This document shows positions 40,420-62,786 of a DNA stretch of 64,000 bases, in pieces. Location of the stretch: assembly GCA_000004695.1 (NCBI GenBank), contig CM000151.3, positions 4,768,001 to 4,832,000 of the forward strand. The letters are read 5' to 3'. The position numbers were made by a program, and so were the translations under genes. Position 1 is the stretch's first letter. Every line of letters begins with the position of its first letter. Under the pieces are notes generated by a model. It was not told where the DNA came from. It made no database searches and saw only the letters and a list, made by a program, of their open reading frames with translations. This stretch comes from Dictyostelium discoideum. Taxonomy: Eukaryota.

Positions 40420-40470
<51 letters not shown>

Positions 40471-41360
40471 TACAACAACAACAACAACAATTAAATACAA
40501 TTGATGATGATTCAAATAATTATTGTAATACAACAGGTACTATGGATAGTATTGATGAAATTAATAAAAATAATTATAGTGATAGTGAAAGTGATGAATT
40601 AAATGATGATCAAGCACCAATTATAGCACCAGTTCAACAATTATCATTTGGTCGTGTTACTAGAAGACATTCTATTGATATTATTATGTTTGAAAATTCT
40701 AGAGAATTATCAGAATTAAGAAATCTTGAAGATTCAACTAGATATTTGTCACCACGTTCAATGAATAATAATAATGGTAATAATGATAATGGTATCAATG
40801 GTGGTAGTGGAAACTCATTATTTGGATCATCAATTAAAGAAGAGATTGGTGGTACTTCTGATACAAGTTCATTAGCACAATCACCAAATTCATTATCACC
40901 AAGAGCCCCAACAAAGATTATGATATTAGATGATAATCCAGTTAGCTTAAAATTAATGCAACGTATCTTGGAAAGTCGTGGATTCGAATGTTATCCATTC
41001 GATTGCTCAGAGAAAGCCGTTGCTCAATTGGATCAAGTTAATCCTGCCATCATTTTCATGGATTGTGAAATGCCAAAAATGAATGGTTTCGAATGTACTC
41101 AATTAATAAGAAAGAGGGAACAAGAATCACTTTGTCTATTAAAAGATCGTAAGATTATTATTGCTTTGACTGCTCATATTAATCCTGAAATTCAAGTTAA
41201 ATGTTTCGATGCTGGTATGAATGATTTCATCTCAAAACCATTCAAACCACAATGCTTAGAATTAATCCTTAGAAAATGGGAAGATTGTATAAGTAATAAT
41301 CAATTAAATTATAACAATAGTTTAATTAATAATCAAACTACAATTCAAGAGCAAGTTTAA
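37683..41360 (+). CDS. Hybrid sensor histidine kinase (Dictyostelium dhk family): N-terminal TM segment, HisKA + HATPase_c, and a C-terminal receiver domain; 1,225 aa, single exon
   Basis: H box 'ISHLSHELRTPIHSVIASIQLF'; N box 'LLNLIGNGLKYT'; G1 'KDSGIGI'; G2 'GSGLGLAISKDLVELMGGKIW'. The receiver reads 'KIMILDDNPVSLKLMQRILESRGFECYPFDCSEKAVAQLDQVNPAIIFMDCEMPKMNGFECTQLIRK...ALTAHINPE' with the phospho-accepting Asp in 'IFMDCEMP'. Ser-rich and poly-Q linkers are present. I cannot tell which dhk paralog this is. Confidence 0.85.
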
Positions 41361-41429
<69 letters not shown>

Positions 41430-41625
41430 GACTCATAGTGTATTTTTAATTTTATAAAAAAAAAAAAAAAAAAAATTTGTAAATAATGGTAATAATAATA
41501 AAAAAAAAAATTAATATGTTTGTTCGAAATTTTTAATTAAACAAATAAACAAAAAATAATATTGTAAATAAATAAAAAATAACAATTAAAATTATTTTAA
41601 TTTTCTTTAAATATATTTTTTTATA

Positions 41626-41666
<41 letters not shown>

Positions 41667-41754
41667 TTCAAAAATACGATATATGTTAAAATATTTATCT
41701 TTTTTAATTTTAATTTTTTTTTTTTTATTTTTATTTTTTTTTTATTTGATTTTT

Positions 41755-42120
41755 TTAATTAATAACATCAATAATATTAAATATTGCTGGTTGTTCACTT
41801 TTATTAATATATCCAAAATTAAAATATGTACCATTCTTTAGACCCCCATTTTGACTAATATATTTTGGAAATGAAAATTTATTTGATGAGATTTGTTCTA
41901 CAGACCATACATTTTCCAATTCTAAATTTGATACACCAACAATGGTTGCCCCAAACACTATGGCTTTTCCAGTATTTCTTACCCTTACATCCCAGACTGA
42001 GAATGGTTGACCATTATGATTCCAAGAACTTGTTAGTGCTTGTGATATGGTTAATTGTTGACTAATTACTAATGAAAAAAGGGCAAAGAAAAATAAAATT
42101 AAGAATAATTTTTTGGACAT
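41755..42120 (-). CDS. Small secreted protein (121 aa) consisting of a signal peptide plus a CBM2/CBM49-like carbohydrate (cellulose)-binding beta-sandwich module
   Basis: Signal peptide is 'MSKKLFLILFFFALFSLVISQQ'. The mature part 'SSWNHNGQPFSVWDVRVRNTGKAIVFGATIV...NVWSVEQISSNKFSFPKYISQNGGLKNGTYFNFGYINKSEQPAIFNI' aligns with bacterial CBM2a 'SQWNGGFQAEVTVTNTGSSAINGWTVTF...LWNGTLSQSGSNVTVTNASWNGTIAPGASVSFGFNGSYSGSNPTPAVFTLN'. The family call is by pattern only. Confidence 0.5.
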   Translation of the reverse strand: MSKKLFLILFFFALFSLVISQQLTISQALTSSWNHNGQPFSVWDVRVRNTGKAIVFGATIVGVSNLELENVWSVEQISSNKFSFPKYISQNGGLKNGTYFNFGYINKSEQPAIFNIIDVIN

Positions 42121-42228
42121 TGCTTTTTTTTTTTTTTTTTTATATAATTTTATTTTTTTAATAAACTTTTCTTTTTATTTCTAAATTGTTTGTTTGATTA
42201 ATAAAAATAAAAAAAAAATTGTTTAAAT

Positions 42229-42267
<39 letters not shown>

Positions 42268-42740
42268 CCAACTAAATTTATTTGGTTTTTTTTTTTTAAA
42301 ATAATTATTTTACTATAATAAGTAAACCACATAATTTAGGTAAAAAAACACACACCTCAAAATGGATTTTGTTTGTAATTTTAAATTAAAAATAAAAGAA
42401 TTAAAAAAATCATTTTTTAAAATCAACAAAAAACTTTTTTTGTTTTTTCAAACACACCACCAAAAAACAATTTTTTTTTCATTATGATGTTACCTATATT
42501 TTATAAAAATTAATAATTAAAATGAAAAAATATGGGAATTGTTTGGAAAAAACTTTTTTTAAAAAAAAAAACAATTCGGTTAATAATTATTTATTAATTT
42601 TTTTAAATTGTTTAATTGTTAATTTTAAAATTAAATCAAGTGATTGAAAATGGGGGGTACTGAATTCATTTTTTTTTTTTTTCCATTTCTATTTCATTTT
42701 CCTTTTTTTTTTTTTTATTTTTTTATTTTTTTTTTTTTTT

Positions 42741-44557
42741 CTAATTACCAAAATAAAAATTTGAAAAAATAACTAAAACTATTAAAATTGATAAAGTGAT
42801 TAAACAAATTTGTGCAATAATTTTTGAGTATCTTCTTGGAATTAATGATAAACTTTTAAAGTGATTAGTTGTAATATTAGTATTTTCTTCAGTATCTCTT
42901 GTTTCAAGTGAAAGTTCTTTTAATATCTTTTCTTGTTCTGGTGTAAAAAAACTTTCATAATTTTCACCATTTGTAAAACCTTCTTCAATATTATTTAATT
43001 CTATTTGATTTGATTCTAGTCCTTCTTTTCCTTGTTTTTGTTTATTATTTATTTTATTTTCAAATTTTTGTTGTTTATTATAATTATTTAATTTATTTTT
43101 AAAGTTTAAAGATTTTATATAAAGAATAAATGGTATAATGAAATTTGCAATTGAACCAAAGAATAAAGAAGAATAATTTGAAATTATATTTAACCAATCA
43201 CCAGTTTGAAATGGAATTACAATTAACCAAGGTAAAACTATTGAAATTAAATTTGCAATCCAAGTTGGAAAGAATTTATTTTGAGTTAAATTATATCGTA
43301 CAATGATTGAAAAAACTGGTATTGTACTTGCCAATACAATAAAAGGGAATAAATAAACTGATAATTTTGAAAATATATTTGCTTTTTTAGATAAATTAAT
43401 TAAACTAAGAATGGTGGAATTTGGAGACATTGAAGAGAAAGTTAATGCACCAAATACACCAACAATAATGAATAATACCGTTGAAAAACTTGTTGAAATC
43501 CAAACTGATCTTTTTAAATTAACATTTGGTTTAGACTCATTTACCCATGATGGTATAGTTGTAATGAATGCATAATTAAACATACAATTACCAATGATTT
43601 GTGATATACCACTCATATGGTTACCAATAGTTGGTAAATTATCAGTTGATAATCCAATCAAAATGAAAATAACAACCCAACTAATTACAATTACCAACAT
43701 AATGATAACACATGCAATTTGTATGATTATATTATCATTTAAATTAAAGAATGCCAATGGTACAACCAGAACTAGTATAGCTAAATAACCAATTGTTATA
43801 AACATATAATCATCTTGAAATGGTGATCCACCATCACCACTATTCTCAATTACACATATCCACCCATTGGAAAAAGAGATCCCACATGTTTTTTTGAAAA
43901 TAAATACCATTAAACTATCGAAAACTTGTGAACATATGATAATACTTGCAATATTTGTAATGATTAAACTTATATTTATAAATAATTGTGATACTAAATA
44001 CATTGATTTACCAAAATAAAATCTACATATCATTGTAAACTCTATACGTAATGCAAATTTATTATTTCCTGGAATCATTGACATTGATTCTATTATAAAT
44101 AATGCCGATATTCCACTTAAACCTAACATTAAAATATATCCTAATAATGATAAAAACCATCCACCTTGTTGAAATTGATAACTAATATTAACCATTCCTG
44201 GTCCTGTACAATTACCAATTAATAAACATATTCCACCAATTGTTCCACTTTTTTTTTAATTTTTTTTTTAAAACAAATTAATTTTTTTTTTTTTTATATA
44301 ATTTATTAAAATTAATAATAATATATTTATATATATTAATTATATACATACATTGATTTTAAACCAAATTTTTTTTTAAAATCTTCATCTTTTTGTGGGT
44401 TTGGAAAATTCTCTAAAATTTCTTCAGTTGATGATATTGAAGAAGATGAAGTATTTGCTGTATCGTTTGTTGAAATTATTGTTGTTCCACCAGAAGTTTT
44501 TGTTGGATTGGGAAATGAAATTAATTCAACATTTTCATTTGTATTTAAATCACTCAT
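42741..44557 (-). CDS. Transmembrane amino-acid transporter (Aa_trans/SLC38-like), ~570 aa. Model: complement(join(42741..44247,44352..44557)) with a phase-2 intron (AT|GTATGT...AAAAAAAAAG|T)
   Basis: There is a cytosolic N-terminus, then 'GTIGGICLLIGNCTGPGMVNISYQFQQGGW' (the Aa_trans TM1 GxG signature), followed by ~10-11 hydrophobic helices. The C-terminal tail is Asn/Lys-rich. Confidence 0.7.
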
Positions 44558-44751
44558 AATACAAATTATTCTTTTTTTTTTTTGATTTTTTTTTGATTTT
44601 TAAAAAAAATAATAATAAAAATAATAATAATAATAAAAATAATAATAATAATAAAAAAAATAATAATAATTTTTTAATAAATAACAATAACAATAAATAA
44701 AAAATAAAAAAATAATTTTAATATTAAAAAATAAAAATTAACAATATTTTT

Positions 44752-44786
<35 letters not shown>

Positions 44787-45639
44787 TGTTATTGTTTAAT
44801 TGCAGTTTTAAATTGTTTTTTTTTTTTTCAATCGCTAATTAAAAAAATGATAGTGGGGAAAAAAAGGGATAAATGGGGTATGAAAGTTGGAAAAATGATG
44901 ATTTTATTGTAATTATTAATATTTTTTTATTTTTTTTTTTGTGTGTGTGTTTTTTTTTTTATTTTTTAATTTTTTTGTTTTTATTTTTAAAACAATATTA
45001 TAAACAACCCAAACCAAATGTGGATCATATTTAAATAATTAAGATTCGTTAGTGATGACTCACACTAAAAAAAAATTAATAGAAAAAAAAAAAAAAAAAA
45101 AAAGAAAAAAAAAGAACAAAAAAAATAAAAAAAAAATAAAAAGACAAAACAAAAATTGATTTTAAGAAATTCAGAAATTCAGAAAAAAGAAAAAAAAAAC
45201 ATTGGTAAAAATTAAAAAGACAAAACAAAAATTGATTTTAAGAAATTCAGAGAAAAAAAAGTAAATGATGATGTTGGAGTACATTTTACACAAAGCACCA
45301 TTTTAATATTATTATTATTATTAATTGATTGTTGTTAAGTTGGTTTAATTCTGATGCATTAATTTAAGTTGAGAGTGGATTAAGTTTTGGTTCAGTTGAA
45401 ATGGGTAATTAATATTTTTTGAAAAAAAAAATATTAATAAGAAAGGATCATTTTCATTTAAATTTTAAAAAACAGAAAAAAAAATTTCAGATTATAATAA
45501 TTTAATATAAATTAGTTAATTAATTGTAAAAAAAAAAAAAATTAAAAAAAATTATAAAAAGTACTTTTTTTTATCTTTGGTAATTATTATTATTTGAATT
45601 TATTTATTAAAAACATAAATAAAAAATTCTAATGTGTGT

Positions 45640-45691
<52 letters not shown>

Positions 45692-45751
45692 GATTAAATC
45701 AAGATTTTAAATTTTTAATCTGGTTTATTTTTTTTATTGAAATTTTATTTA

Positions 45752-45884
45752 TTAACATGAAACTGTTCTATAAATATCCTCGTGCCAAACAAATACATTA
45801 CGTCCACAAGTCATTAACTCTGGTGAAGTTGTACAATTTGTTGGATAGTCTTCGCAATACTATGAAAAATATTAAAAAAAATAT

Positions 45885-45915
<31 letters not shown>

Positions 45916-46016
45916 TTTTAACTATTATCGTTTTTTAAAATTAATTTCAATAAAACTTACCAATACTGATGCTGAAATTAAAAAAATAATTAAATTGGAA
46001 ATTTAAATCGTGTGTT

Positions 46017-46060
<44 letters not shown>

Positions 46061-46729
46061 ATTTAATACATATGTTCACCTTGATCACAATAAAATTTTG
46101 AAAAAGAATTATTTCCTAAAAAAAAAAAAAAAGAATTATTAATTAGTAATCAATTTAAAAAAAAAAAAAAATAATAATAATAATGATAATAATAATAAAT
46201 AATTTTATTACCTAAATGGAAAACAGTATTATTTGTATAAAAATAATACCATTGAGGATTACCTAAACAATTTGGATCAGTAAATTGAGAATATTTATAT
46301 GCATATTCTGGCATACTTGTTGGATTTTCTTTAATTGTAACCAAAACATAATTATATGGTTGATAATACATGTAACCAATATCTGGAACTTTGTAACACT
46401 CATTAGGAAAAAAAAGTTACATCATCTTCTGAATTTGAATTTGAACATGTAATATCAGACCCTTTATATAACTGAAATGTTGCATTTGCATTATCTTTTC
46501 CAAGTGTTTTATAATTATTTAAAGTTGATGTAAAATCACCAATAGCAAAACATTCACCAACAACAAATGCATAACAAACTCCATTTTCACCTTTTGATAC
46601 CGTACATTCATAATCTTCGTATGGTGTCATCTCTACATAATAAACTGATTCAACAACCAATATTGTTGAAAAACAACAAATTATAATAAATAAACAAATA
46701 AAATAAATTAAATTATTATTATTAAACAT
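45752..46729 (-). CDS. Secreted Cys-containing protein, paralog 1 of a local two-member family. Multi-exon model: exon 1 from 46729, extra intron ~46105..46190, an 11-nt micro-exon CATCAGTATTG at ~45934..45944, last exon 45752..~45861. Carries a +1 frameshift in the T8 run at ~46384..46391
   Basis: The N-terminus 'MFNNNNLIYFICLFIIICCFSTILVVESVYYVEMTPYEDYECTVSKGENGVCYAFVVGECFAIG' is 70-80% identical to the gene at 48957..49847. The central part 'PNECYKVPDIGYMYYQPYNYVLVTIKENPTSMPEYAYKYSQFTDPNCLGNPQWYYFYTNNTVFHLG' is likewise 70-80% identical but sits in a shifted frame after 'SEDDVTFF'. The C-terminal exon reads 'YCEDYPTNCTTSPELMTCGRNVFVWHEDIYRTVSC*'. Confidence 0.5.
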
Positions 46730-47158
46730 TTTAAAAAACTAAATGTGAAAATAAAAAAAAAATAAAAAAAAAAAAAAACCAAAATAAACCTTATAAAAAA
46801 GTAAATTAATTATGAATAAAAATATAAAATATTAATTTTTTGAATATTTAGATCCTAATACTTTAATGACCCCATCTGATTTTGAGTCAATCTCTTGGTG
46901 ACATTGATCACATTTTTCGTATTTTGTTTTAGTTATGTTTTGAATACATGTTGCACACCATGGTTTACTTTCATATTGATAAAATTCATCTATTTTTTTT
47001 TTTAAAAAAAAAAAAAATTAGTTATCTTTATGAAAATCTTGACGTCATAAAACAAAATAAAATAAAATATCCAAAAATATCTTTTTTTTTTTTTTTTTTT
47101 TAAAAAATAATTTTAAAACTTTATAAAATATCTAAAAATATCTTTTTTTTTTTTTTTT

Positions 47159-48451
47159 TTAAAAAGTTAAAACACTATTTTTTAATCTTGATTTTTCAGA
47201 TTCAAATACTAATTTATGAGAAGCAAGAGTATCATCAGGACCAGATAAAATTTGAGTTGGATCATTTTCAGAGACTGCATAAATAAATGATCTCATGAGG
47301 TAATAATCTGAAGCACCATGATTTGACATTTTTGTATTTTGAATTATTTGTGGTTTAAAGATTTCTTTATCACCAAATCTAAAGTCATCATAGACGATGT
47401 CATAACCATTGTTACATTCTAATTGACCCATTGAACCAAAGATTCTAATTTTACGTACACACATACTCTCTGTGAATGCAACCATACTAAAAGAGGAGAG
47501 AGCACCACCTTCAAATTCTAAATTCACAACTTGCTGATCGACTACGTCATTATCACTCTCATAGACACATCTACCATAGGGACCGTTTTCAATTGCCAAT
47601 TTAACATTCTCTTTTGTTGGCTCTCTATCTGGTACTAGTACATCCCTTTTCCAAGGATAATGCTCTAAATAAATCTTTTGAGCACTGTATGGACACGTTT
47701 TGCTAATTGCGCATTCTACACATCTCTTTGCACTACCAGCATTGGTAGGTTTTTTCTCCTTTTTAAAGTATGTCAAGCTACCAAATGACGATACTTTCTT
47801 GCACTTTTTTCCGCCCATAAAATAATGAATCAAGTCAAGATCATGACACGACTTTGCCAATAGCATGAATGTCGAGGTTGAGAGTTTTCTCCAATTGCCT
47901 CTGACATAGGAATGGGCGTGGTGGTAGTACCCCACAGGCTCCAAATGCTGGATGTTTAGCACCTCCCCTATCAATCCACTGTCTATCAATTGCTTGATTT
48001 TAATATTAACCGGTGAGTATCTCAATACGTGGCAAACAGATAACATGACATTGTTGGCTTTGCAAGCTGATGTAATTCTCTCACAATCTTTTTCAGTGAT
48101 AGCTAATGGTTTCTCTACTAATAAATGATACTTTTTATTAGCAAATGCAATTGCAGGCTCACAATGTAATTGGTCGGGTGTTGCTATTAACACTGCATCT
48201 GCGAATTTATCCATTGATATTATGTCTTTCCAATTTTCAAATATCATATCACTTGATAATCCAAATTCATTACCAAGTGTATCTCTTCTAAATTTAATTG
48301 GATCACATACTGCAACAATCTTTAATCTATTTGGTCTTTCAATTGAATATCTACTATAAACATATCCTCTTTGACCACACCCAATTATTATTAATTTTAC
48401 AATTTTATTATTATCAAATTTCTTTTCTTCATTTTCAATATTATCTTCCAT
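47159..48451 (-). CDS. Gfo/Idh/MocA-family NAD(P)-dependent oxidoreductase, 430 aa, single exon
   Basis: N-terminal Rossmann 'KLIIIGCGQRGYVYSRYSIERPNRLKIVAVCDP' and 'AVLIATPDQLHCEPAIAFANKKYHLLVEKPLAITEKDCERI' (the conserved EKP motif) are present. The C-terminal alpha/beta domain is typical of the family. Confidence 0.8.
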   Translation of the reverse strand: MEDNIENEEKKFDNNKIVKLIIIGCGQRGYVYSRYSIERPNRLKIVAVCDPIKFRRDTLGNEFGLSSDMIFENWKDIISMDKFADAVLIATPDQLHCEPAIAFANKKYHLLVEKPLAITEKDCERITSACKANNVMLSVCHVLRYSPVNIKIKQLIDSGLIGEVLNIQHLEPVGYYHHAHSYVRGNWRKLSTSTFMLLAKSCHDLDLIHYFMGGKKCKKVSSFGSLTYFKKEKKPTNAGSAKRCVECAISKTCPYSAQKIYLEHYPWKRDVLVPDREPTKENVKLAIENGPYGRCVYESDNDVVDQQVVNLEFEGGALSSFSMVAFTESMCVRKIRIFGSMGQLECNNGYDIVYDDFRFGDKEIFKPQIIQNTKMSNHGASDYYLMRSFIYAVSENDPTQILSGPDDTLASHKLVFESEKSRLKNSVLTF

Positions 48452-48956
48452 TTTTTTTAATAACTATACTTTTTTTATATATAAATAATTATTAGATGTA
48501 GTGGTAAAAAATTAAAGAAAATAAAAAAAAAAAAAAAAAATTAATTAAAAAAAAAAAAAAAAAAAAAAATTAAAAAAAAAAAATTCAGAGAACGTTCAAA
48601 TAAAAACATTTAAACTTTAATGGGATAAATGAAATAATAAAAAAAAAAATAAAAAAAAGGTATAAAAAAAGGTATTAAAAAAAAAAAAGGTAGCTGTTTA
48701 ATTTAAATTTTTTATTTTGTCAAATCATTTTTGTTTTAAGAATGAATAAATAAAAAAAAAAAAAATATTAAAATATTGAAAAAAAAAAAAAAAAAATCAG
48801 CTCAATTATTTTTTTTTATTTGGAATATATTTTAAATAAAATAATCAAGATTTAACTCTTTTTTTTTTTCATTTATAAATTAAAATTATTTTTCATTTTT
48901 TTATTTTTTTTTTTTTTTTTTGGTTTGTATAAAAAAAAAAAAAATATTAATTATAT

Positions 48957-49847
48957 TTAACATGAATCTAAATAGTAAATGGGTTCTTTCCATGCCCATG
49001 CATTACGACTACATGGTCTGTATATATCTGTAGATGTGCAATTACTTGATGAACCTTCACAATACTATTTATAAAAAAAATATATAAAAATATTAGAATA
49101 ATTTTAAAAAACTAGTTTTCCTGTTTTTTTTTTTTTTTTTTTTTTTTTAAACTTACCAATTCGTATGCTAATTTTTATTTATATTATATTTGAATGAAAC
49201 AAATAAAATTTAATTTTATTAGGATCTATAATTTTAATATTTTATAATTTTTTTTTTTAAAAAAAAAAGGTTAAAATATACTTACGTTCACCTTCATCAC
49301 AATAAAATTTACTGAAATCATTATTACCATAATGGAATGTTGTACCATTTGTATAGAAAAAGTACCATTGGGGATTGGTAGCACAATTGGAATCACTATA
49401 TTGTGTGAATTTAAAAGCATACTGTGGCATGCTTGTTGGATTTTCTACAATTGAAACTAAAACATAATTATATATATTTGGATACATATTATTGTCAGCG
49501 TAATTTGGTGCATTATAACAACTTCCTGATTGATAAGTAACATCATTTACTGGATTAGCTTGTGAACATGTTGAATCTGAATTTTGATATTGATGAAATG
49601 TTGCTGTATTATTACCAACACCGCTAAGTGAAATCACATAATTATTAATTATTGGCGCAAAACTACCAACAGCAAAACATTCACCAACAACAAATGCATA
49701 ACCAACTCCACTTTCACCTTTTGAAACTGTACATGCATCATCTTCATATGGTGTCATCTCTACATAATAAACTGACTCAACAACCAATATTGTCGATCCG
49801 ATTAATAACAATAAACTTAAAAAATAAATAATATTTTCAAATTTCAT
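48957..49847 (-). CDS. Secreted Cys-containing protein, paralog 2 (intact). Model: exon 1 49847..~49300, 11-nt micro-exon CATACGAATTG at ~49155..49165, last exon 48957..~49066
   Basis: Signal peptide 'MKFENIIYFLSLLLLIGSTILVV' is followed by 'ESVYYVEMTPYEDDACTVSKGESGVGYAFVVGECFAVG...NPQWYFFYTNGTTFHYGNNDFSKFYCDEG' and, after two GTAAGT introns, 'YCEGSSSNCTSTDIYRPCSRNAWAWKEPIYYLDSC*'. I do not recognise the family. Confidence 0.55.
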
Positions 49848-50449
49848 TTTTTTTTTTTTTTTAATTTTTTTTTTTTATTATTATAATTAATTTGAATTTA
49901 TTTTTATATAAAATGATCAATAATAAAAAAAATTAAAAAAAATTTTAAAAATAAAAAACTAAACAAAAAAAAAAAAAAAATTAAAAAAAATCATTTTTTT
50001 AAGATATTTTGGATAATTCAATTATAAAAAAATAAAATATCTTTTTTTTTTTATTGGAGAAATAATAAGAAAAATCTTTTTTAACACATCACCAATTCTA
50101 TTTTTTTTAGGTGACACCTTTCTTGAAATAAAAAAATAAAAATCCAAAATAAAAAATTCTAATAAAATTTAAAAAAAAAAATAAAAAAAAAAGATTATTT
50201 ATAGGTATATAAAATTTAATACAATGAAAACCTTATTTTAATTAATTTTTTGGGTGTTTAATAAATAAAAAATAATAAAATCTGTGTGTGTTTTTTTTTT
50301 TTTTTTTTTTTTTGTAAAGTGGGTCTTTATTTTTATTTTTATTTTTGTTTTTTATTTTTTATTTTTTATTTTTTATTTTTTATTCATCAAAAAAAAAAAA
50401 AAAAATACCACTTAATAAAAAAAGCTTATAATCAAAAATAAAAAAAAAA

Positions 50450-51598
50450 ATGATTAGTGCAAATATAAAAATTATAGTTTATGGAGGTAAATCTGGTTGG
50501 ATTGGTCAAAAAATTATAGAGTTATTAAAATTAAATGATAATATTGAATATCATATAAGTGACTGTAGACTTGAAAATAGAGAATCAATTTTAACTGAAT
50601 TAGATAAAATTAAACCAACATCAGTAATAAACTGTGCAGGTGTAACTGGAAGACCAAATGTAGACTGGTGTGAAGATAATTAACAAGAAACAATAAGGTA
50701 AAAAAAAAAATATTAAAAATAATTAATTAAATTAGGCAATTTATTTCTTTTTTTTTTTTAAATGAAATAATTTTTTATAATATTTCAAAAACTACTATTT
50801 AAAAATAAAAAGTTACCAAATTTTATTAATTTGTATTTTCTATATAAATTTATTTAAAAGAAAAAAAAAGAAAACTAATTTAATTTTTTTTTTTATTTAT
50901 TTTTTTTTTTTATTTTATTTTTTTTTTTTTTTTATTAATAATTTTTTATTTTTTATTTCATTTTATTTAGATCAAATGTAATTGGTACTTTAAATTTAAT
51001 TGATTGTTGTTATTTAAGATCAATTCATATAACAAATTTTGCAACTGGATGTATTTATAAATATGATGAAAATCATCCAATGTATTCTGGTATTGGATTT
51101 AAAGAAGAGGAAGAATTTAATTATTTCGAATCACATTATAGTGTAACAAAACAAATGGTTGAAAAATTAACAAAACATTATGAAAGTAATACATTAACAT
51201 TAAGATTAAGAATGCCAATATCAGAGAATTTAAATGAACCAAGAAATTTCATTACAAAGATAATAAATTATGAAAGAGTTGTAAATATTCCAAATAGTTG
51301 TACAGTTTTACCAGACCTATTACCAATAGCAATTGATATGTCAATTAAACAAATTAAAGGTGTTTATAATTTCGTTAATCCTGGTGTAATTTCACATAAT
51401 GAAATATTAGATCTTTATACATTATTAATTAATCCAAATTTTAAGTATCAAAATTTCACTGAAATTGAACAATCAAAAATTTTAAAATGTGGTAGATCAA
51501 ATAATCATTTAGATACAACAAAACTTGAATCATTATATCCAACAATACCAAATATTAAAAAATCAATTGAAAATATTTTTTTAAATTCAAAAAAATAA
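50450..51598 (+). CDS. NRS/ER-like NAD(P)-dependent epimerase/reductase (UDP-4-keto-6-deoxyglucose 3,5-epimerase/4-reductase, RmlD-like; UDP-rhamnose pathway), ~291 codons. Model: join(50450..50697,50971..51598) with a phase-2 intron (AG|GTAAAA...TTATTTAG|A). Contains an in-frame TAA at 50681..50683
   Basis: Near-colinear match to Arabidopsis NRS/ER: 'KIIVYGGKSGWIGQKIIELL' vs 'KFLIYGRTGWIGGLLGKLC'; 'INCAGVTGRPNVDWCEDN*QETIRSNVIGTLNLIDCC' vs 'FNAAGLTGRPNVDWCESHKTETIRVNVAGTLTLADVC'; 'NFATGCIYKYDENHPMYSGIGFKEEEEFNYFESHYSVTKQMVEKL...LRLRMPISENLNEPRNFITKIINYERVVNIPNSCTVLPDLLPIAIDMS...GVYNFVNPGVISHNEILDLY' vs 'NFATGCIFEYDAAHPEGSGIGFKEEDKPNFTGSFYSKTKAMVEELL...LRVRMPISSDLNNPRNFITKISRYNKVVDIPNSMTVLDELLPISIEMA...GIWNFTNPGVVSHNEILEMY'. 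The stop sits where the homolog has Lys (AAA). Confidence 0.75.
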
Positions 51599-51659
51599 AT
51601 TATTTATTATTTTTTATTATTTTTTTTTTAATTATTTAATTATTTTATTTAGTTTTTTT

Positions 51660-54302
51660 TTAAAATTGATATTTCCATTTTAATGGTACTAAATTAAAAG
51701 AAATATTTGTAATTGATAAATTTGTTTTTAATGAACGTTCAAAAACTTCTTTTGAACGATAAGTTAATTTATTAAAACTAAGATCTAAAACTTGAATATG
51801 AGTATTTGTAGCTAATGATTCAGCAAAGATTATACCAACTTTATCATTTATTTCATTTTCATTCATATTTAAACGAATTAAATGAGTACCATCATTTGCT
51901 AATAATGAAGCAATTGGTAAACTACCTTTATCACCTAAAGAAGTATAAGAGAGTTCTAAATGAATTAATGATCTATTTACTTTTAATGAATCTGCAATTA
52001 ATTGACCAAATTGAGGTGATAACTTGTTTTGACTCATATTTAAAAGTTTTAAAGTTTTATTATTTGATAAAGCCTCTGCGATATATTTGGCACCAGCATA
52101 GTCGATTTGATTACCAGAGATATCCAACGATTTCAATGAACAAGTTGAAGAATTTAATGCACGAGCAATACCCTCTGCAAAACCATTACCTAAACTATTG
52201 GTTGATAGAGATAGGGCAGTAATAGTTTTATTATTCGATAAAGCATCGGCTAATTCCCAACCACCTGAAGTATCGAAAATTCTATTATCGGAAAGATTTA
52301 ATCTTGTAATTGTACTATTAACTTCCAATGCTCTCGCAATCGATATTAAACTTACACCCAATTTATTAGATTTAAAATTAATGTCCACTAATGTAGAAGT
52401 TTTCTTTGAGAGTGTTTTTGAAATCTCTGATGCACTTGCACTTTCTAATTGACAATTTGATAAATTCAATTCATTCAATACGGTGGTGGTTGATTTACCT
52501 AATGATTCGAAAAATACAGCACCCGATTGATCATCGATATGATCCAAATGAACCGATTTCAAAGTACTATTATGAGCCAATGAATTACCAAGCATAATTG
52601 CAGTTTGACCATTGATATAATTTAAACGTAAATAAAGTCTCTCCAATTTATTATTGGTTTTCATTGCTCTTGCCAATGCAATACCACCCTCTGGTGCAAT
52701 ATGATTGTAAAAGAAATCAATGGTTTTCAAACTTGTCTTATTGGTTGACATAAGTTGTGCCAATTTTATAGCTGTTGCATTACCAAGTTTATTACCACGA
52801 AAATCTATCGATTCAATAGTAGTATTCTCTGATAGTGCATTTATAACTGCATCTATTGAATCATCATCTAAATTACCATGACGAAATGATAAATGAGTAA
52901 TGGAAGTATTAATTCTCAATGCATTACCAATTGCCATGAAATTCTCTGGCGAGATCCATTTTTGATAGAATCTAAAATAAGTCATCGAATTTGCAACCTC
53001 AAAGAATTGGGTGAATAAATTTTTACTAAATGAATTTGATAAGATCGGTTTAGTGGTAGCTTTCATGAATTTCTCAGGTACACGATCTGGCATTGTATGT
53101 TTTACAACATTCATAAATTTTTGAAATGTTGATGATTTATCAATATGCATTGCAACATAGTAAAATTTAAATTTCTTACCACCCTCAATTAAACCTTGTG
53201 TTGTCAATTGAATTAATGAACGTAAATGTTTTGGTGATTTAACAGTGAAATAAGTGAATACTTGTGGAGCTAATTTACATCCCCATAATTTACAAACTAA
53301 ACAAATTGTTTCCAATTCTAAATTTGGATTCTTTTTAACTATTATACCATTGCCACTATTACTACCACTATTATTTAAACTATTTAATAATGATGATCCC
53401 AATGGTGAACCACCATCAGAACCTGATGAACCACCTGACATACTTAATTGACCATTGTTGTTGCTTCCGTTATTGGATGCACTTTCACCCTCTGGTGAAC
53501 CACTAAATCTTATCTCTGATTTCTCTAAATCAACTTTATTCTCTATTAAATAATATAAAATCTTTGTTATAACTGTATGTGGTAAATTATTTATATTCAA
53601 TTTATCTGTAGATTTAAAAAATGTTTTACTTAATGATTTCTTTAATTGACCATGTTTTGATTCTTTATTCTCTTTTTCTTTTTTACTTGATCCCAAACTT
53701 GTTGTAATTGTACTTGTTTCATCATCTTCATTAAAATCAACTGCTTTATTTAATTCTACATTTTTATGACGTCTAATATGATGATGTCTATGTTCTTTAT
53801 CTTTATGTTCTTTATCTTTATGTTCTTTATCTTTATCCTTATGTTCTTTATCTTTATCTTTATGTTCTTTATCTTTATGCTTATGTTCTTTATCTTTATG
53901 TTCTTTGTGTTCTTTATCTTTATGTTCTTTATGTTCTTTATGTTCTTTATGTTCTTTATGTTCTTTATGATCATCATTATCATTGGTAGTTGTATCTTCA
54001 AAATCTGATGAATCAGGACTAAGAGTAAGTTCACCTAATCCATCTGGTAAATTTTTATTTTTTTTACTACTTTTCTTTTTATTTGGTGAATGAAATGCTG
54101 ATGCTATGAATGCTAATGGTGATGATGGTCTTCTAGGTTTAGTTTGTGGTGGTGATTTATGAAGTTTTGTATTGTTTATTGTTGATAACTCTTCGGCATT
54201 ATTATCAAACGATGATGATAATCCACCACCTTTTGGTGGGGAATTTTGTGGTATTAATTCTATACTATCCACTAATATTTTTGGTGGTGGTAATTCACTC
54301 AT
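51660..54302 (-). CDS. Leucine-rich-repeat protein (ribonuclease-inhibitor-type LRRs) with an N-terminal His/Lys/Glu/Asp repeat and a possible F-box-like motif; 880 aa, single exon
   Basis: The C-terminal ~520 aa contain about 16 repeats of the RNI-type 28-29-aa LRR (e.g. 'LNLSDNRIFDTSGGWELADALSNNKTITALSLSTNSLGNGFAEGIARALNSSTCSLKSLDISGNQIDYAGAKYIAEAL'). The N-terminal low-complexity block is '(HKE)4HKDKEHKEHKDKEHKHKDKEHKDKDKEHK...'. 'LPHTVITKILYYLIENKVDL' fits an F-box consensus weakly. Confidence 0.75.
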   Translation of the reverse strand: MSELPPPKILVDSIELIPQNSPPKGGGLSSSFDNNAEELSTINNTKLHKSPPQTKPRRPSSPLAFIASAFHSPNKKKSSKKNKNLPDGLGELTLSPDSSDFEDTTTNDNDDHKEHKEHKEHKEHKEHKDKEHKEHKDKEHKHKDKEHKDKDKEHKDKDKEHKDKEHKDKEHRHHHIRRHKNVELNKAVDFNEDDETSTITTSLGSSKKEKENKESKHGQLKKSLSKTFFKSTDKLNINNLPHTVITKILYYLIENKVDLEKSEIRFSGSPEGESASNNGSNNNGQLSMSGGSSGSDGGSPLGSSLLNSLNNSGSNSGNGIIVKKNPNLELETICLVCKLWGCKLAPQVFTYFTVKSPKHLRSLIQLTTQGLIEGGKKFKFYYVAMHIDKSSTFQKFMNVVKHTMPDRVPEKFMKATTKPILSNSFSKNLFTQFFEVANSMTYFRFYQKWISPENFMAIGNALRINTSITHLSFRHGNLDDDSIDAVINALSENTTIESIDFRGNKLGNATAIKLAQLMSTNKTSLKTIDFFYNHIAPEGGIALARAMKTNNKLERLYLRLNYINGQTAIMLGNSLAHNSTLKSVHLDHIDDQSGAVFFESLGKSTTTVLNELNLSNCQLESASASEISKTLSKKTSTLVDINFKSNKLGVSLISIARALEVNSTITRLNLSDNRIFDTSGGWELADALSNNKTITALSLSTNSLGNGFAEGIARALNSSTCSLKSLDISGNQIDYAGAKYIAEALSNNKTLKLLNMSQNKLSPQFGQLIADSLKVNRSLIHLELSYTSLGDKGSLPIASLLANDGTHLIRLNMNENEINDKVGIIFAESLATNTHIQVLDLSFNKLTYRSKEVFERSLKTNLSITNISFNLVPLKWKYQF

Positions 54303-55245
54303 TTTTTAATTTTATTTATATATTTATATACAGGTTTTATTTTTAATTTTATTATTTATTTATTTATTTATTATTGAATATAAAAATATTTTTTTATTAT
54401 TATTTTTTATTTTAATTTTTTTTTTTTTTTAATTATTTATTGGAAAAAAAAGAAAAAATAATAAAACTAATTAAAGTAAAATGTATATGTTTTATACAAA
54501 AATAGTATTATAAATAATTTTTTATAAAAAGAAATGCAAATTTGGTATGACAACGACTGACAGATTTTTTTTTTTTTAAGTGTTTAATTTATGAAAAAAA
54601 GAAAATTAAAAAAAAATGAAATAAAATTAAAAAAAAAAATTAAAAAATTAAAAATAGGTTACAATTTTTTTTTTTTTTTTTTTTTTTTTATTATTTTATT
54701 TTAAATTATTATTATTATAATTATTCTACTTTCTTTATTTTATTTTTTTTTTTTTTTTTTATTATTTTATTTTTTTTTTTTTTATTTTTTTTTTTTTTAA
54801 TGACTTTTAAAGTGATTAGTGGTGAACTGTTTGGAATGAAAATAAAAATAAAATTTTTTGGCAAAGGTTGGATTAAAAAAAAAAAAAAAATAAAAATAAA
54901 AAAAAAAAAAAAAAATAAAAATAAAAATAAAAATTAAATATTTTTTTTGATTATTAGAACCACCAAAACGAAGTGTCTTTTTTTTATGAAAATAAAAAAA
55001 TCAGCTTACGAAAATTTTCAAGATCACAATGCAAATATTTGATATATAACTTTTATTTTATTTAAAAATTTTATAATTGTTTATAATTATTATTTTTTAA
55101 ATTATATTTTCTAACCCTCAAAAACTCATAGTAATCAAATTATCTCAATTCTTAAACAAAAAAAATAAAAAAATAAAAATAATACTTTTAATTAAACCTT
55201 ATTATCAGACTTTCTCACTCATAATATCAAAATAAAAAAAAAAAT

Positions 55246-55276
<31 letters not shown>

Positions 55277-56946
55277 TTTTTTATTTTCAATTAATTTTAA
55301 AAAATCTAAAAATAAACCGACAAAATAACCTCACATTCTTTTCGGGTTACATTTTTAAAATAACTACTAAGGGTGGTAATACAAGCCCTATCGAATTAAA
55401 TTAATAAAAAAAAAAAAAAAAAAAAAAATAATAAAAAAAAAAATTATAATATTAAAAACTAAAATTCTTAATTTAAAACAATTTTTTTTTTTTTTTTTGT
55501 TATTACTGAAATCTGAATCATAATGCAACGACAATTTTTATAATATTTATCTTATGAATCTGAATTTGAATCTGATACATTAATTTTTTATTATAAATAA
55601 TTATTGACACCACTATTTCATTTCCCATTATTTTTTATTGGGAAACAAAAAGCCCTGTTTAGTGATTTCAAAAAAAAAAAAATAATAAAAAAATAAAATG
55701 TGTATATATGTATATTTGAAAAAAAAAAAAAATCAATATTAAAAAATAATTTGAATGGCAACTCATTTTGATTACGTTCAATATTTAAATTTCAATTAGT
55801 TTATAGTTTTTTATTTTTTTTTTATTATTATTTTTTTTTTTTAAAAAAAAAATTATCTCAAGTGATTCAAATAATGATCAGAAAATAAAAAAAAAAAAAA
55901 AAAAAAAATGAAATAATGGCAACAAATCGAACAGGTATGCAATCAAGTTTCAAATAACCATCATGAAATATTTAAAAAAATAATAAAATTAAACAATGGG
56001 CAACAAATCAAACAGATATACAATCCCGTTTCAAATAACCATCAAATAAGCATCAAAAAAAAAAAAAAAAAAAAAAAAATTAAAAATGGTAAACTTATGT
56101 TATGTGGTAATTTAATTTCAAATAAAGATCAAGAAAAATATGGAAAACTAGTAAAAATATTAAAAAAAGTTATTTTTATTTTTATTTTTATTTTTTTTTT
56201 AATTTTTATTTTTTTTTCTTCGATTTCCAAGATTACTTTTCCATCATTTTCATAATAAAATTTAGGCCTATTATTAAATTATTATGATAAAAAAAAAAAA
56301 TAGTGTTGAGGGAAAATATTTTATTTTGCTTTGGTATAAAATTTTTTTTTTATTTTGGTTTACAAATCTCGATGGATATTTAACTCTTTTTTTTGAGAGA
56401 GAGTTTTTTTTTATTTTTTTTTTTAATTTATTTTTGCGCCCACACACAAAGCAACACATACAAAAAAACCATGTCAGTGACCACGTTGACAATTAAAAAA
56501 ATTACATAAAAATAAAAATAATTTAAAATTATTTTTTTTGATTTTTTTTTTTTTTTCCAATTTTTTTTTTTCTTCTCACATTTTTTTTTGAATTTTATTT
56601 TTTATTATTTATATTTTTTTTTAAATTTTATTTTTTTTTTTTTTAAAAATTTCTTTTTTTTTTTTTTTTTTTTTCTCAAAAATTACTTTTTTTTTTTATT
56701 ATTATTTTTGATAAAATAAAATTTTAAAGTTTTATACATATAGTTTTTTAATAAACAAATAATAATAAATAAATAATAATAAATAAATAATAATAAATAA
56801 AATATATAAATAAATATTTTAATAAATATAAAATTTTTTTTCACTTTTTTTTTTTTTTTCTTTTTGTGTATATAAATTAAAAAAAATATAATATAAAATA
56901 TAAAATATAAAATATAAAATATAAAATATAAAATATAAAATATAAA

Positions 56947-57156
56947 ATGGTTGAATTAGAATCAATGTCATCATCAAGCGAATGGTTTTTAAATAATAAC
57001 AGTAATATTCATAATAATACACACAATCATAATCATAATAATAATAATAACAATAATAATATAAATAGTAATAATCACGGCCATAGTGCAAATAGTAGTG
57101 CACACAACCACAACAACAATAATAATAATAATACCAATAATAATAGCAACAATAGC

Positions 57157-57194
<38 letters not shown>

Positions 57195-57762
57195 ACAAAA
57201 TACAAATAATGGTACATTTTTAACACCATTACCTGTATTAACTAATAGTAGTACTGGTTTGGGAAAAAGTATTGATTGGTTATATACAAACACCTCAAAT
57301 ACCGACTCACATAATATAAATTCAAGTAGTAATAAAGTTACAAAACTTTCAAATGGATTTTCTTTATTAAATCAAGATGGTACTCAATCACCATCATGCT
57401 TTTTAAATTTATCCTCAACTGGTAACCACGAAGATCCTGTACAAGTTCCAATGAACAATAATCCACAAGATCTCTTATTCCAATTTAATATTTCACCACA
57501 ATTACAATCACAAAATAATAATAGTAGTAATAATAATAATAACAATAATAACAATGGTAGTAATACTCCATTAAATGGTAGTAATGGTAGTAATAATAAT
57601 TATTCATCACCAATTTCACCAGTACCACAATACCAACACTCTGCTGGTTCTTCACCAATCCAAGAGTATCCATATTATTCACCATCATCATCACCCCATT
57701 CAAATGAATCAACCTCACCAATTACAGTTATTAAAGATAGTGGTAGTATTATAAATCCAATC

Positions 57763-57815
<53 letters not shown>

Positions 57816-58902
57816 TAATAATAACAATAATAATAATAATAAAAACAATTTAAATAATAATACATTCCAATTTTCATCATTAAAAAGTACAACTGGTATT
57901 GCACCACCATTACAAACCGATTATCATTTATTATATAATTTTGTTCAACAAAATTTTTCTGGAAAACCAGAAGATTCATTATTAAACCAAACTTTAAATA
58001 ATAATAATAATAATAATAATAACAATAATAATAATAATAATAATACAACAATCCAAACTTCACCACAACCACTTGTTTTACCACAAATTCAAAATCCATT
58101 TTTACCATATAATATTTCGACTCCAATTTCAGTTCCAAATAATATTTTATCATCAGCTCAATCATCAACAAATTCATCACCAAACAACAACAACAATAAT
58201 AATAATAATAATAACAATATTTTTTCAACTGTTAATAATAATAATAATCTCGTAAATAATAACAGTAATAATATGGAATTAGATGTAGATAAACCATTTT
58301 CACAAGAAAAATTTTATTTACACTTAAAATCAATTGTACCAAGTTTTAATGAAAATTTTGAAGCATCATCTGAATCTGCACAATCTGAATCATCTCAAGA
58401 AAGTGATTATGATGCACTCAATGAACGTAATAGTGGTGTTAAGAAGAGAGGTAGAGATGAAGATCAAATCGATACATCTGGTCAAGTTGTTTTATCACGT
58501 GAACATGTTTTGAAATTATCAAGTAAAGAAATTGAAGAATATGTTTCACGTTTAAAGATGCACCATATTCTTACTCAAGCCGAGGAAAAAGAATTGAAAA
58601 AACAAAGACGTTTAGTAAAGAATCGTGAATATGCTTCACAATCTCGTTCTCGTAGAAAGATTTATGTTGAGAATATTGAAACAAAACTTCAAAAAACAAA
58701 TCAAGATTGTGCTTCAATTAAATCTCAATTAAATTCAGTTAAAGAGGAAAATAAAGCCTTAAAGAAACAATTGTACAGTTTAACTAATACTCTTAAAAGT
58801 AATCCTTCTTTAGCTGAAGCATTTGGAAAAATTTTCTCTCCAATAGGTAATAATAAAACTTCTTCTGCTACATTATTTGTAAGTTTTATTTATTTAATTT
58901 TA

Positions 58903-58943
<41 letters not shown>

Positions 58944-59492
58944 AAATAAAAAAAATATACTAACTTTTTTATAATTTTTAGGTATTTTTCTTTTTATTTA
59001 CATTTACATTTTTATTCCAATCTTCTACAGTTACCTTTAATTCAGAGTATGTTTTATTTTTTTTTAAAATACCATTAGCGTTCATAAAATTTATATTAAT
59101 TTTTTTTTTTTTTCTCTTTTTATAGTAGGGTATCTTCAATTCAACGTAATCTTTTAAGTTTAGAAGAAACTCAAGCAACAGAATGGAACATAAAGAGAGC
59201 CATTCTTGAAGAAACTAAACAATATGTCGATTCTTTGTTAACCTCCTTATATACTTCAAAACTACAATCTTTATCAGAAACTCCTTTAGATACATCTAAT
59301 TATATCATCAACAACAACAATAACGAATCAACTTCCGAAACAACAACAAACAACAAAGTAGTTTCGACATCTAGTGATGATATTTCAAATGTTTTATCAA
59401 ATCTTTCTGTTTCCGATAAAGAAGTTCCTCAAAAGTGTAAAGATTCATCTGATTTAAAATGTGATTCTCCCCCACTTTCACCTTTAAATTAA
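56947..59492 (+). CDS. bZIP transcription factor with a C-terminal transmembrane segment and lumenal tail (membrane-tethered, ATF6/CREB3-like architecture), ~786 aa. Model: join(56947..58878,58982..59046,59129..59492) with introns GTAAGT...TTTTTAG (phase 0) and GA|GTATGT...TATAGTAG|G (phase 2)
   Basis: Basic region + leucine zipper is 'ELKKQRRLVKNREYASQSRSRRKIYVENIETKLQKTNQDCASIKSQLNSVKEENKALKKQLYSLTNTL' in exon 1. The 65-nt exon 2 encodes 'VFFFLFTFTFLFQSSTVTFNSE', which with the preceding 'SSATLF' gives a ~20-aa hydrophobic helix. Exon 3 continues in frame with 'VSSIQRNLLSLEETQATEWNIKRAILEETKQYVDSLLTSLYTSKLQSL...KCKDSSDLKCDSPPLSPLN*'. The long N-terminus is poly-N/Q/S-rich. Confidence 0.65.
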
Positions 59493-60639
59493 TAAAATTT
59501 TTATTTATTGTTTCATAAATTTTTTTTAGGTTAATCATTTAATCACTTTTTTGTTTAAATATTTCATTTTTTTTTTTTTAACCTTTAATAATATCTTTAC
59601 TACACCCTCATTTAACCCAGTTTTTTATCAATAAAATGACCATAAGATGATTTACAATTGTCTAATGATTGAATATAATTAATATTTACGAAAATGTTAG
59701 AAAAAAATTTAATAATTAATTTTTTACTTAAATTATTTTTTTTAATTAATAATATATTATTTTTATATTTGTTTGTATATATGTCTGTAATACTATAAAT
59801 TGTTATTTATTAGGCATACCCTCTTTTGTAATATTATACATGAGAATGAACAATATTATATACAGAATTATATATTTAATTACAGAAAAAATATAACAAA
59901 CTTTAACTGAGTATTTAAATTTTTTTTGATATTTTTTATATTTTTTTATATATACATAGCCTTCATTTATTTTTTAAGGTAATTAATTTCAAAACAAGAA
60001 AGAATTCTTGAAAAAAAAAAAAAAACTACTTTTATTTCTTTTTTTATTTTCAATTGATCAATCAACAATAACCAATAAAAAGAATAATAAAAAGAATAAA
60101 AAGTAAATGTGAAAAAAAGTTACTATAAAGCAACTAATAATATTTTATTTTTTATTTTTTCAAATTAAACACAATTTTTTTTTTATGTTCCCACCACGAT
60201 TAGTTAATGTTTTTGTGGTGAATTGATGAATTATAAGATTATACCAAAATTATTTTTTATATATTTAATGTACGGATTGTTTTTGATTGATGAGAACAAT
60301 TTAAATAAAAATCAAATTAAAAAAAGTTAATTATATTTTAATTTTTTTATTTTTTAATTTTTTTTTTTGTTTTAATTTCCCCCAACACAAATTTTTTTTT
60401 TTTTTAAAAAATTTTGGTTTTAATGAAAATCGATGTTCCATTGAAATTTTTAGTTGTGTTTGTGAAAAATACTATTTATTTTTTTATAAAATTGAATAAA
60501 AAAAATCCCAAAGAAAAAAAATAAATAAAAAAATAATAATTTATTTTTATTTTTATTTTTTTATTTTTTTATTTTTTTTTTTTTTTTAATTTGTAGTCAA
60601 ATTATTATTATTATTATTATTATTATTATAATTATTATA

Positions 60640-60678
<39 letters not shown>

Positions 60679-61309
60679 GTTTTTTTTTTTTTTTAGATAT
60701 TCAGTTTTAAATATGTTTGTAAATAAATAAAATTGTAATTAATTAATGAATTTGTAAAAATAGAAAAAAAAAAAAAAAAAAAAACATAAAAATAACCAAT
60801 AAATATCCATAAAAAAAAAAAAAAAAAAAAAAAGGCTTTTTCTGAAGAAAGTTTTTTTTTTTTTTTTTTTGTATATTTATTGTTTATTTCTATCTTTTTT
60901 TTTTTTTTTAGTGATCCACCTTTTTCCCACTTATCGAAAAAAAGGGGTATTTTTTAATATCCTTTCCGTTCCATGTTTTTTTTTAATAATTTCCATATTA
61001 ATATAAAATTTTTTCCATTTTTTTTTTTTTTATTAAATAATAATCTAGGATAAGCGAAATTTTTTTTATTTTTTTTTAAATTATTTTTAATTTATTATTA
61101 ATTAAGGGACCCCGAATTCTATTTATTTATTATTCATTAATTTTTTATTTTTTTTTCTTTTATCCAGGCGAGAAAAAAATAAAAACAAATTTAACACCCT
61201 CATTTTTAAACAGTTATCATCTAAAAATAACATTTTAATAAAATTATAATTTAAAAAAAATAAATAAATAAATAAATAGATTTTATATTTTAAAAAAAAA
61301 AAAAAAAAA

Positions 61310-61356
<47 letters not shown>

Positions 61357-61485
61357 AATAATAATAGTAATAAAAAGAAAAATAATAAATAATAATTATA
61401 ATAAATTTTAAAAACTAAATAAAAATTAATTTGTAATATCCAATTTTATTTATTTATTTATTTAAATATATTATTATTTTTGATT

Positions 61486-61580
61486 TTACTTAATTTAATT
61501 TAATTTGATTCGATTCGATTCTATTCGATTTGATTTAATTTAATTTAATTTAATTTAATTTGATTTGATTTGATTTGATT

Positions 61581-61596
<16 letters not shown>
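61486..61596. repeat. (GATTT)n / (AATTT)n pentanucleotide microsatellite, ~20 units with variants (GATTC, TATTC)
   Basis: Visible as aatttaatttgattcgattcgattctattcgatttgatttaattt...gatttgatttgattt. Confidence 0.85.
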
Positions 61597-61619
<23 letters not shown>

Positions 61620-61873
61620 CTTTTTTCCATTATTTATAAATATGATGGAAATCTTCCATTTTCCATTTTCCACCATAATTTGAATTATTTTCTCGGAAAT
61701 TGCCAACACTAGTGTTTACTAAATAACAAATACATCCTTATCTCTGTTGATTCCAATTGTGATCAACGTTGTGAAAAATCAGTGGAACTCAATTATGATT
61801 TTTGCTATTTTTTTAAATATTGTCTGTGGACCAACATCCATATTAATTATTTTTAATATTTATAAAAATTATA

Positions 61874-62200
61874 GTGATGATTCATTATAAGATAAAACAA
61901 CAGAAAATATCACCAATACCATCATCACAACAAACCAAGTTCACCAATTCATCAAAAAAAGAGAATGGTAGAAAACCAATGGGGTGTTGTTGGTGGTGTA
62001 GATTTAGATGCACTTTTAATTCAAGAAAAAGTTTTATGTTGTCGTTATGTGTGGTGGGTCTTATAACAGCTTATGATTTCAATAATGCTTCTATTCAACT
62101 TCACTTCCAATCCAAAAAAAATTTTGGTTTTAGAGTTTGGAAAATGGTTGGTTCAAATGAAAAAATATTGATATTTACCAAGGTAAAAATTCAGAGGTGA
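61874..62200 (+). CDS. Candidate small ORF (108 aa) in a locally less AT-rich island; unsupported by homology
   Basis: The ORF 'MMIHYKIKQQKISPIPSSQQTKFTNSSKKENGRKPMGCCWWCRFRCTFNSRKSFMLSLCVVGLITAYDFNNASIQLHFQSKKNFGFRVWKMVGSNEKILIFTKVKIQR' is not low-complexity, has one hydrophobic segment, and sits in a ~600-bp stretch (61620..62250) of noticeably higher G+C than its surroundings. It could equally be an exon of something else or noise. Confidence 0.2.
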   Translation: MMIHYKIKQQKISPIPSSQQTKFTNSSKKENGRKPMGCCWWCRFRCTFNSRKSFMLSLCVVGLITAYDFNNASIQLHFQSKKNFGFRVWKMVGSNEKILIFTKVKIQR

Positions 62201-62247
62201 CAAACCCACCAGCACCGCATAAAATTACTCGACCGCCTTAAAAATTA

Positions 62248-62289
<42 letters not shown>

Positions 62290-62752: not shown

Positions 62753-62786
<34 letters not shown>

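Follow-up and report, generated by a model that had tools for sequence, protein, structure and literature searches.

Enzymes of the NRS/ER type complete UDP-L-rhamnose synthesis by catalysing its final two steps after a separate UDP-glucose 4,6-dehydratase has acted, and the Arabidopsis thaliana representative (At1g63000, PDB 4QQR) is a stand-alone bifunctional enzyme that operates together with such a separate dehydratase (PMC6556577). A second structure is available for the L780 UDP-L-rhamnose synthase of mimivirus (PDB 7JID), a virus that infects amoebae. Bacterial RmlD (TIGR01214/PF04321), which shares the SDR superfamily with these proteins, is a reductase only and requires a separate RmlC epimerase. 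We analysed a stretch of 64,000 nucleotides from the AX4 reference sequence of Dictyostelium discoideum chromosome 2 (contig CM000151.3, positions 4,768,001 to 4,832,000; hereafter the window), in which a two-exon gene of the NRS/ER type is interrupted by an in-frame TAA at codon 78. As detailed below, this stop is most plausibly an artefact of the assembly rather than a real feature.

When the two exons were joined, with the stop read as X or K, the conceptual product matched the Pfam Epimerase and RmlD_sub_bind domains, the latter being the domain of bacterial RmlD. The best solved relative was the Arabidopsis NRS/ER (E 5.7e-97 across 281 residues, residues 4-284), followed by the mimivirus enzyme (E 2.3e-58), and in both cases the similarity to the characterised protein was full-length. 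The Arabidopsis protein is alike in size (301 aa versus 291 aa in Dictyostelium) and shares the GxxGxxG motif, the TGC segment, the YxxxK motif and the PRNFITK segment with the Dictyostelium protein, whereas the mimivirus protein, while having the same architecture, is more distant and shows small insertions in the vicinity of the stop. A total of 4,430 homologs were recovered at E<=1e-10, and full-length matches reached E 1e-184, which indicates that the gene is not a chance ORF. The hallmarks of extended SDRs were found in the form of the NAD(P)-binding GxxGxxG (G13-K-S-G16-W-I-G19) and the catalytic YxxxK (Y139-S-V-T-K143), with G16, G19, Y139 and K143 being invariant in an alignment of 13 sequences. 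A bacterial RmlD identity was ruled out, as the score against the TIGR01214 equivalog model was only 40.3 bits, far under its curated cut-off of 224. We regard the gene as an unremarkable NRS/ER family member, the assignment already proposed in a preliminary description of this DNA, and by homology its product is predicted to be a 291-aa SDR functioning as a UDP-4-keto-6-deoxy-D-glucose 3,5-epimerase/4-reductase. D. discoideum has a tgds-like gene, DDB_G0279465, as a candidate for the UDP-glucose 4,6-dehydratase partner.

The DNA surrounding the gene is highly AT-rich and its coding islands have 23-30% G+C, which is the Dictyostelium pattern (Table 1). Translation of 50450..50698 yields MISANIKIIVYGGKSGWIGQ...RPNVDWCEDN*QETIR, that is, from the initiator ATG the frame reads MISANIKIIVYGGKSGWIGQKIIELL...GVTGRPNVDWCEDN, runs into the TAA and resumes with QETIR, and beyond the intron it continues as SNVIGTLNLIDCC... 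up to the terminal stop. This agrees with the preliminary description, which had reported the TAA at codon 78, a first exon of 82 codons with clean splice sites and a conserved Lys at the position of the stop. Such a Lys is indeed seen both in the dictyostelid orthologs and in Arabidopsis, where it lies in WCESHK at the point at which the AX4 copy has TAA; the homolog segment quoted in that description (...SHKTETIR) was correct as to the Lys and differs from the actual 4QQR segment VDWCESHKVETIR by a T/V residue, a trivial discrepancy.

Table 1. Features of the NRS/ER-type locus, reference-only substitutions and neighbouring features, in window coordinates
Feature	Position	Strand	Remarks
Exon 1	50450..50697	+	ATG at 50450; 248 nt = 82 codons + 2 nt; carries GKSGWIG
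Intron	50698..50970	+	GT..AG, 273 nt, strongly AT-rich
Exon 2	50971..51598	+	628 nt; remainder of SDR fold, including YSVTK (YxxxK) catalytic motif
Stop of exon 2	51596..51598	+	TAA
In-frame TAA, codon 78	50681..50683	+	T at 50681 seen in AX4 reference alone
DDB_G0274989 ORF	50450..50683	+	77 aa, equals XP_644279
DDB_G0274991 ORF	51080..51598	+	172 aa, 100% identical to XP_644280; starts at internal Met120 of full protein
Reference-only substitution, 5' flank	50323	+	G (AX4) vs T
Reference-only substitution, 5' flank	50426	+	T (AX4) vs A
Two reference-only substitutions	48967, 48982	-	15 bp apart, C-terminus of CfaA_B_C-family gene
Two substitutions, AX4 vs AX2	30306, 30331	+	E to D and I to F, 8 codons apart, in SDR gene
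SDR gene	about 29968..31094	+	
CfaA_B_C-family (PF11912) gene	about 48957..49757	-	
Second CfaA_B_C-family gene	about 45750..46620	-	between amino-acid transporter and GFO/IDH/MocA oxidoreductase
GFO/IDH/MocA oxidoreductase	47159..48451	-	430-aa single ORF
Leucine-rich-repeat protein	51660..54302	-	880 aa; convergent with NRS/ER gene, stop codons 62 nt apart
Dense block, AX4 vs AX2-214	60335..60807		20 substitutions and several 1-3 nt indels in ~470 bp

Because of the TAA at codon 78, the AX4 chromosome 2 annotation divides this one gene into two, DDB_G0274989 and DDB_G0274991, both labelled 'hypothetical proteins'. A full-text literature search recovered no paper naming either of them, the supplementary material of Bloomfield 2015 and Singh 2017 contained no occurrence either, and nothing on sequence corrections was found in the dictyBase papers. 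Likewise, an exact 35-mer spanning the site, with N at the variable base, had 0 matches in the JGI metagenomes and 0 in the GTDB genomes; the 77-aa product and a 1022-aa ORF gave no record in the indexed public run assemblies, which apparently lack D. discoideum contigs for the locus.

Most orthologs used for comparison came from the PRJNA1300491 assemblies (Holland, Ahmed, Levin, PNAS 2025, PMC12745789). Orthologs of 291 aa were found in three D. discoideum, two D. cf. discoideum and two D. citrinum assemblies, and one of 290 aa in D. dimigraforme; further orthologs came from D. firmibasis, P. violaceum and T. lacteum. One of the D. discoideum assemblies, GCA_054883475.1, encodes a protein (KAM9945390.1, 291 aa) equal to the conceptual product of the window except for Lys78 in place of the stop. 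A 13.2 kb stretch of this assembly is 99.7% identical to window positions 44427..57604, and throughout the 1149-bp gene, intron included, the sole difference is an A for the T at 50681. Three D. discoideum strains were sequenced in that project, namely the laboratory strain AX2-214 and the isolates CR116C and OT3A, described there as 'genetically diverged' from AX4 (PMC12745789), and the other two D. discoideum copies of the gene are diverged accordingly (protein 95% identical, dS 0.08). By elimination, therefore, and from the sequence identity and the order of the accessions JBTAPE/F/G/H, which matches the table in the paper, we infer that GCA_054883475.1 is AX2-214. Ax2 and AX4 are both descended from DdB/NC4 and carry an identical axeB deletion-insertion (Bloomfield 2015, PMC4374526), which points to a recent common axenic ancestor.

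At the DNA level, codon 78 is AAA in this putative AX2-214 assembly as well as in CR116C, OT3A and M4B, the very codon that the preliminary description had suggested looking for in other strains. The protein alignment adds Lys78 from S6B, the two D. citrinum assemblies, D. dimigraforme, D. firmibasis, P. violaceum and T. lacteum. The stop is thus absent from all ten other dictyostelid sequences examined, each of which has AAA or Lys, and the ancestral codon was certainly AAA. While the AX4 reference copy lacks the uninterrupted frame expected of an NRS/ER gene, the AX2-214 copy and all other orthologs possess it. The D. discoideum-clade copies show dN/dS values of 0.12-0.25 and a conserved exon structure, indicating that the gene is functional in this lineage. 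Moreover, the frame downstream of the stop was found to be intact, as had been claimed earlier, and since AX4 and AX2 show 0 further differences across the 1149 bp of the gene, there is no sign of pseudogene decay.

One way of accommodating the stop would be a longer intron, or an upstream donor, that splices the TAA out of the mature mRNA. GT dinucleotides do occur upstream of the stop, for example at 50660-50661 and in GGTGTG at 50668-50671, but their use as donors would delete the invariant DWCED..ETIRSN segment, and all annotated orthologs use a 248-nt exon 1 that includes codon 78. The layout of a 248-nt and a 628-nt exon, with codon 78 in the first, is found also in the AX2-214, CR116C, OT3A and M4B assemblies, so that no alternative splice takes out this codon in any of them; the intron itself is identical in AX2-214 and varies from 174 to 308 nt, at an unchanged position, in related strains. 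We therefore concur with the preliminary description that splicing could not remove the TAA without loss of conserved residues, and consider this explanation extremely improbable.

Programmed read-through of the UAA, or some other recoding that makes the full-length enzyme from an mRNA bearing the stop, had been raised as a further option. The perfect frame after the stop and the immediate context (TAA CAA GAA) are in keeping with it, given that a C at +4 and a CAA codon weaken termination in other eukaryotes. However, UAA is the least leaky of the stops, and of the read-through consensus CARYYA that follows a stop the hexamer CAAGAA matches only in its CAA, the GAA falling outside it. No tRNA genes were detected in the window. 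Above all, the stop is conserved in none of the ten other dictyostelid sequences, the near-identical sister strain included, and for this reason read-through is not supported; we attach next to no weight to it.

Whether the T at 50681 is isolated or belongs to a larger set of discrepancies bears directly on its origin. From the AX2 contig, 36.6 kb were compared with the window; 36,240 bases of these aligned to positions 27612..64000 (~36.4 kb), and over this span the AX4 reference and AX2 differ by 42 substitutions and 32 indels. With one dense block excluded, the substitutions are strongly clustered, with 8 of 22 having a neighbour at <=30 bp as against 0.76 expected. Long exons (1225 aa and 880 aa) are the same in AX4 and AX2. 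At those sites that could be polarised, the AX4 reference was the odd one out in 7 of 7 cases. Five of these (48967, 48982, 50323, 50426 and 50681) were polarised by DNA from the CR116C, OT3A and M4B loci, with 50323 resolved by M4B alone as CR116C and OT3A are gapped there; the AX2 and outgroup assemblies come from one Nanopore+Illumina pipeline, and shared systematic errors in low-complexity sequence could affect 50323 and 50426, though not the coding sites. The remaining two (30306 and 30331) were polarised by protein orthologs, including some from independent projects. Hence there are at least 7 reference-only changes from 30306 to 50681, a distance of 20.4 kb, which amounts to 3.4e-4 per bp, and three of them, the TAA among these, fall inside 358 bp, approximately the length of one Sanger read.

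The reference-only changes outside the NRS/ER-type gene also include several that alter proteins. In the CfaA_B_C-family gene, the C-terminus reads ...WKEPIYYLDSC* in AX4, as opposed to ...WKEHIYYLASC* in AX2-214, CR116C and OT3A and ...WKEHIYYLSSC* in M4B, the His being common to all four and Ser occupying the second variable position in M4B. In the SDR gene, which was compared among AX2, D. dimigraforme, D. purpureum and more distant species, AX4 has RRLDQLEKVKSSF where AX2 has RRLEQLEKVKSSI; the Glu that AX2 has at 30306 is found in 7 of 8 orthologs, and at 30331 the orthologs have Ile or Val, the Phe of AX4 occurring in none. Both pairs of substitutions are probably reference errors. The AX4 reference probably contains clustered single-base errors that alter proteins: three genes within 20 kb are affected, by at least five coding changes. 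A G:C>A:T transition is seen at none of the seven sites, and nitrosoguanidine mutagenesis accordingly offers no explanation for the changes. The excess of transversions among all substitutions (37 of 42) was considered as a sign of error and dropped, because the spontaneous spectrum of D. discoideum is itself transversion-biased (Ts/Tv 0.42; PMC7466956).

The published base-substitution rate of AX4, 2.5-2.9e-11 per site per generation (PMC3466296, PMC7466956), provides an independent yardstick. Allowing 1e5 generations since about 1970, at most ~3e-6 changes per site would have accumulated, which translates into ~0.06 real changes expected in 20 kb. The observed reference-only differences are thus about 100 times what the mutation rate allows for strains that split around 1970. 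Comparable disagreements with the reference are on record: sequencing of AX4 mutation-accumulation lines yielded 1,917 candidate sites, of which 1,916 were common between lines, and Saxer et al. ascribed the common sites to reference errors or ancestor differences (Saxer et al. 2012, PMC3466296). Those disagreements correspond to ~1e-4 per bp, which is of the same order as the density seen here, and like those in our comparison they are single-base.

It could still be argued that the TAA is a genuine, very young nonsense mutation private to AX3/AX4 and acquired after the split from AX2, in which case AX4 would be a natural epimerase-reductase null, producing at most the 77-aa N-terminal fragment or, by re-initiation at Met120, one of 172 aa that is devoid of the cofactor-binding site. 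The presence of the stop in the deposited AX4 sequence and its absence from AX2 are what a lineage-private change predicts, the want of any other decay in the 1149 bp fits a very recent event, and an A>T change is not unusual given the transversion bias noted above (Ts/Tv 0.42; PMC7466956). A laboratory strain could also acquire a nonsense change in a dispensable gene, as one for a cell-surface sugar may be in axenic culture, and clustered multi-nucleotide mutations are known in D. discoideum (PMC7466956). However, the density expected from mutation (<= ~3e-6 per site) falls far below the 3.4e-4 observed, and the TAA keeps company with two reference-only changes within 358 bp and another two at 1.7 kb. 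Four of the reference-only changes hit conserved residues of two neighbouring genes, and such clustering is typical of low-quality reads rather than of independent mutations, so that 50681 would have to be an exception among its neighbours. A null may not be neutral either, given that in Botrytis loss of the epimerase-reductase with the dehydratase kept results in accumulation of UDP-4-keto-6-deoxyglucose and a weakened fungal cell wall (PMC5698552). As to a unitary pseudogene, the lesion is seen in the reference assembly alone, there are 0 other differences from AX2, and the clade-wide dN/dS values are 0.12-0.25. The young pseudogene envisaged in the preliminary description survives only as a private mutation of the AX4 lineage, which we consider unlikely. 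Were it nevertheless true, the most used reference strain would lack the UDP-L-rhamnose epimerase-reductase as a natural knock-out, with AX2 being wild type, and the two standard laboratory backgrounds would differ in glycans or nucleotide sugars in a way so far unrecognised, with UDP-4-keto-6-deoxyglucose possibly accumulating.

A base-call error in the AX4 chromosome 2 reference is by far the most probable account of the T at 50681. The allele occurs in one assembly only, the ancestral base is present in the sister strain and in the outgroups, and there is a local excess of assembly-unique changes (7 of 7 polarised sites in 20.4 kb, as against ~0.06 expected), a density which exceeds the supply of mutations and is of the same order as that of the published disagreements; taken together, these features strongly favour a reference error. 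The single-base error from A to T that had been listed among the options in the preliminary description is therefore preferred, the assembly of the sister strain having AAA and being otherwise the same across the 1149 bp. The error would have entered the 2002/2005 Sanger reference at this base, the organism would carry AAA (Lys78) and a single intact two-exon gene for a 291-aa protein, and the false stop would have led the annotation pipeline to two bogus genes. AX4 cells themselves would likewise carry A at 50681, and we stop short of certainty because both this base and the identity of the AX2-214 assembly are deduced indirectly. In practical terms, DDB_G0274989 and DDB_G0274991 should be merged into a single gene model of 291 aa, and those working with the AX4 reference should count the locus neither as a pseudogene nor as a case of recoding.

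At a wider level, dictyostelids and other Amoebozoa such as Entamoeba retain an NRS/ER-type gene under purifying selection, which, as far as can be judged from sequence conservation, would imply UDP-L-rhamnose synthesis in this lineage. In the literature searched, we found neither a description of a UDP-L-rhamnose pathway for the dictyostelid/Amoebozoa lineage nor a paper linking Dictyostelium to UDP-rhamnose synthesis. Close homologs, at 59-64% identity, were seen in species of Entamoeba and in one Rhabdochlamydiaceae MAG; the family occurs widely among Amoebozoa, and amoeba-associated chlamydiae share it.

The comparison of the two assemblies brought out two further patterns. The dense block of differences towards the end of the window is AT-rich and apparently non-coding, and at this place the sequence of one or the other assembly is unreliable. 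Throughout 27612..64000, the AX2-214 sequence has the shorter A or T homopolymer in 30 of the 32 indels, by 1-16 nt, which is a systematic length bias between Nanopore/Illumina and Sanger assemblies.

Several observations were also made on the neighbouring genes. The second CfaA_B_C-family gene is annotated in AX2 and M4B and absent from the annotation of CR116C and OT3A; either a presence/absence polymorphism or a gap in the annotation may account for this. For the GFO/IDH/MocA oxidoreductase, the window and three relatives show one continuous ORF of 430 aa, as against a spliced model of 477 aa in the AX2-214 annotation, and on this ground the AX2 gene model is probably over-extended. Finally, a long low-complexity HKE/KDKEH repeat is present in the leucine-rich-repeat protein, which differs in length between strains (880, 868, 865 and 845 aa).
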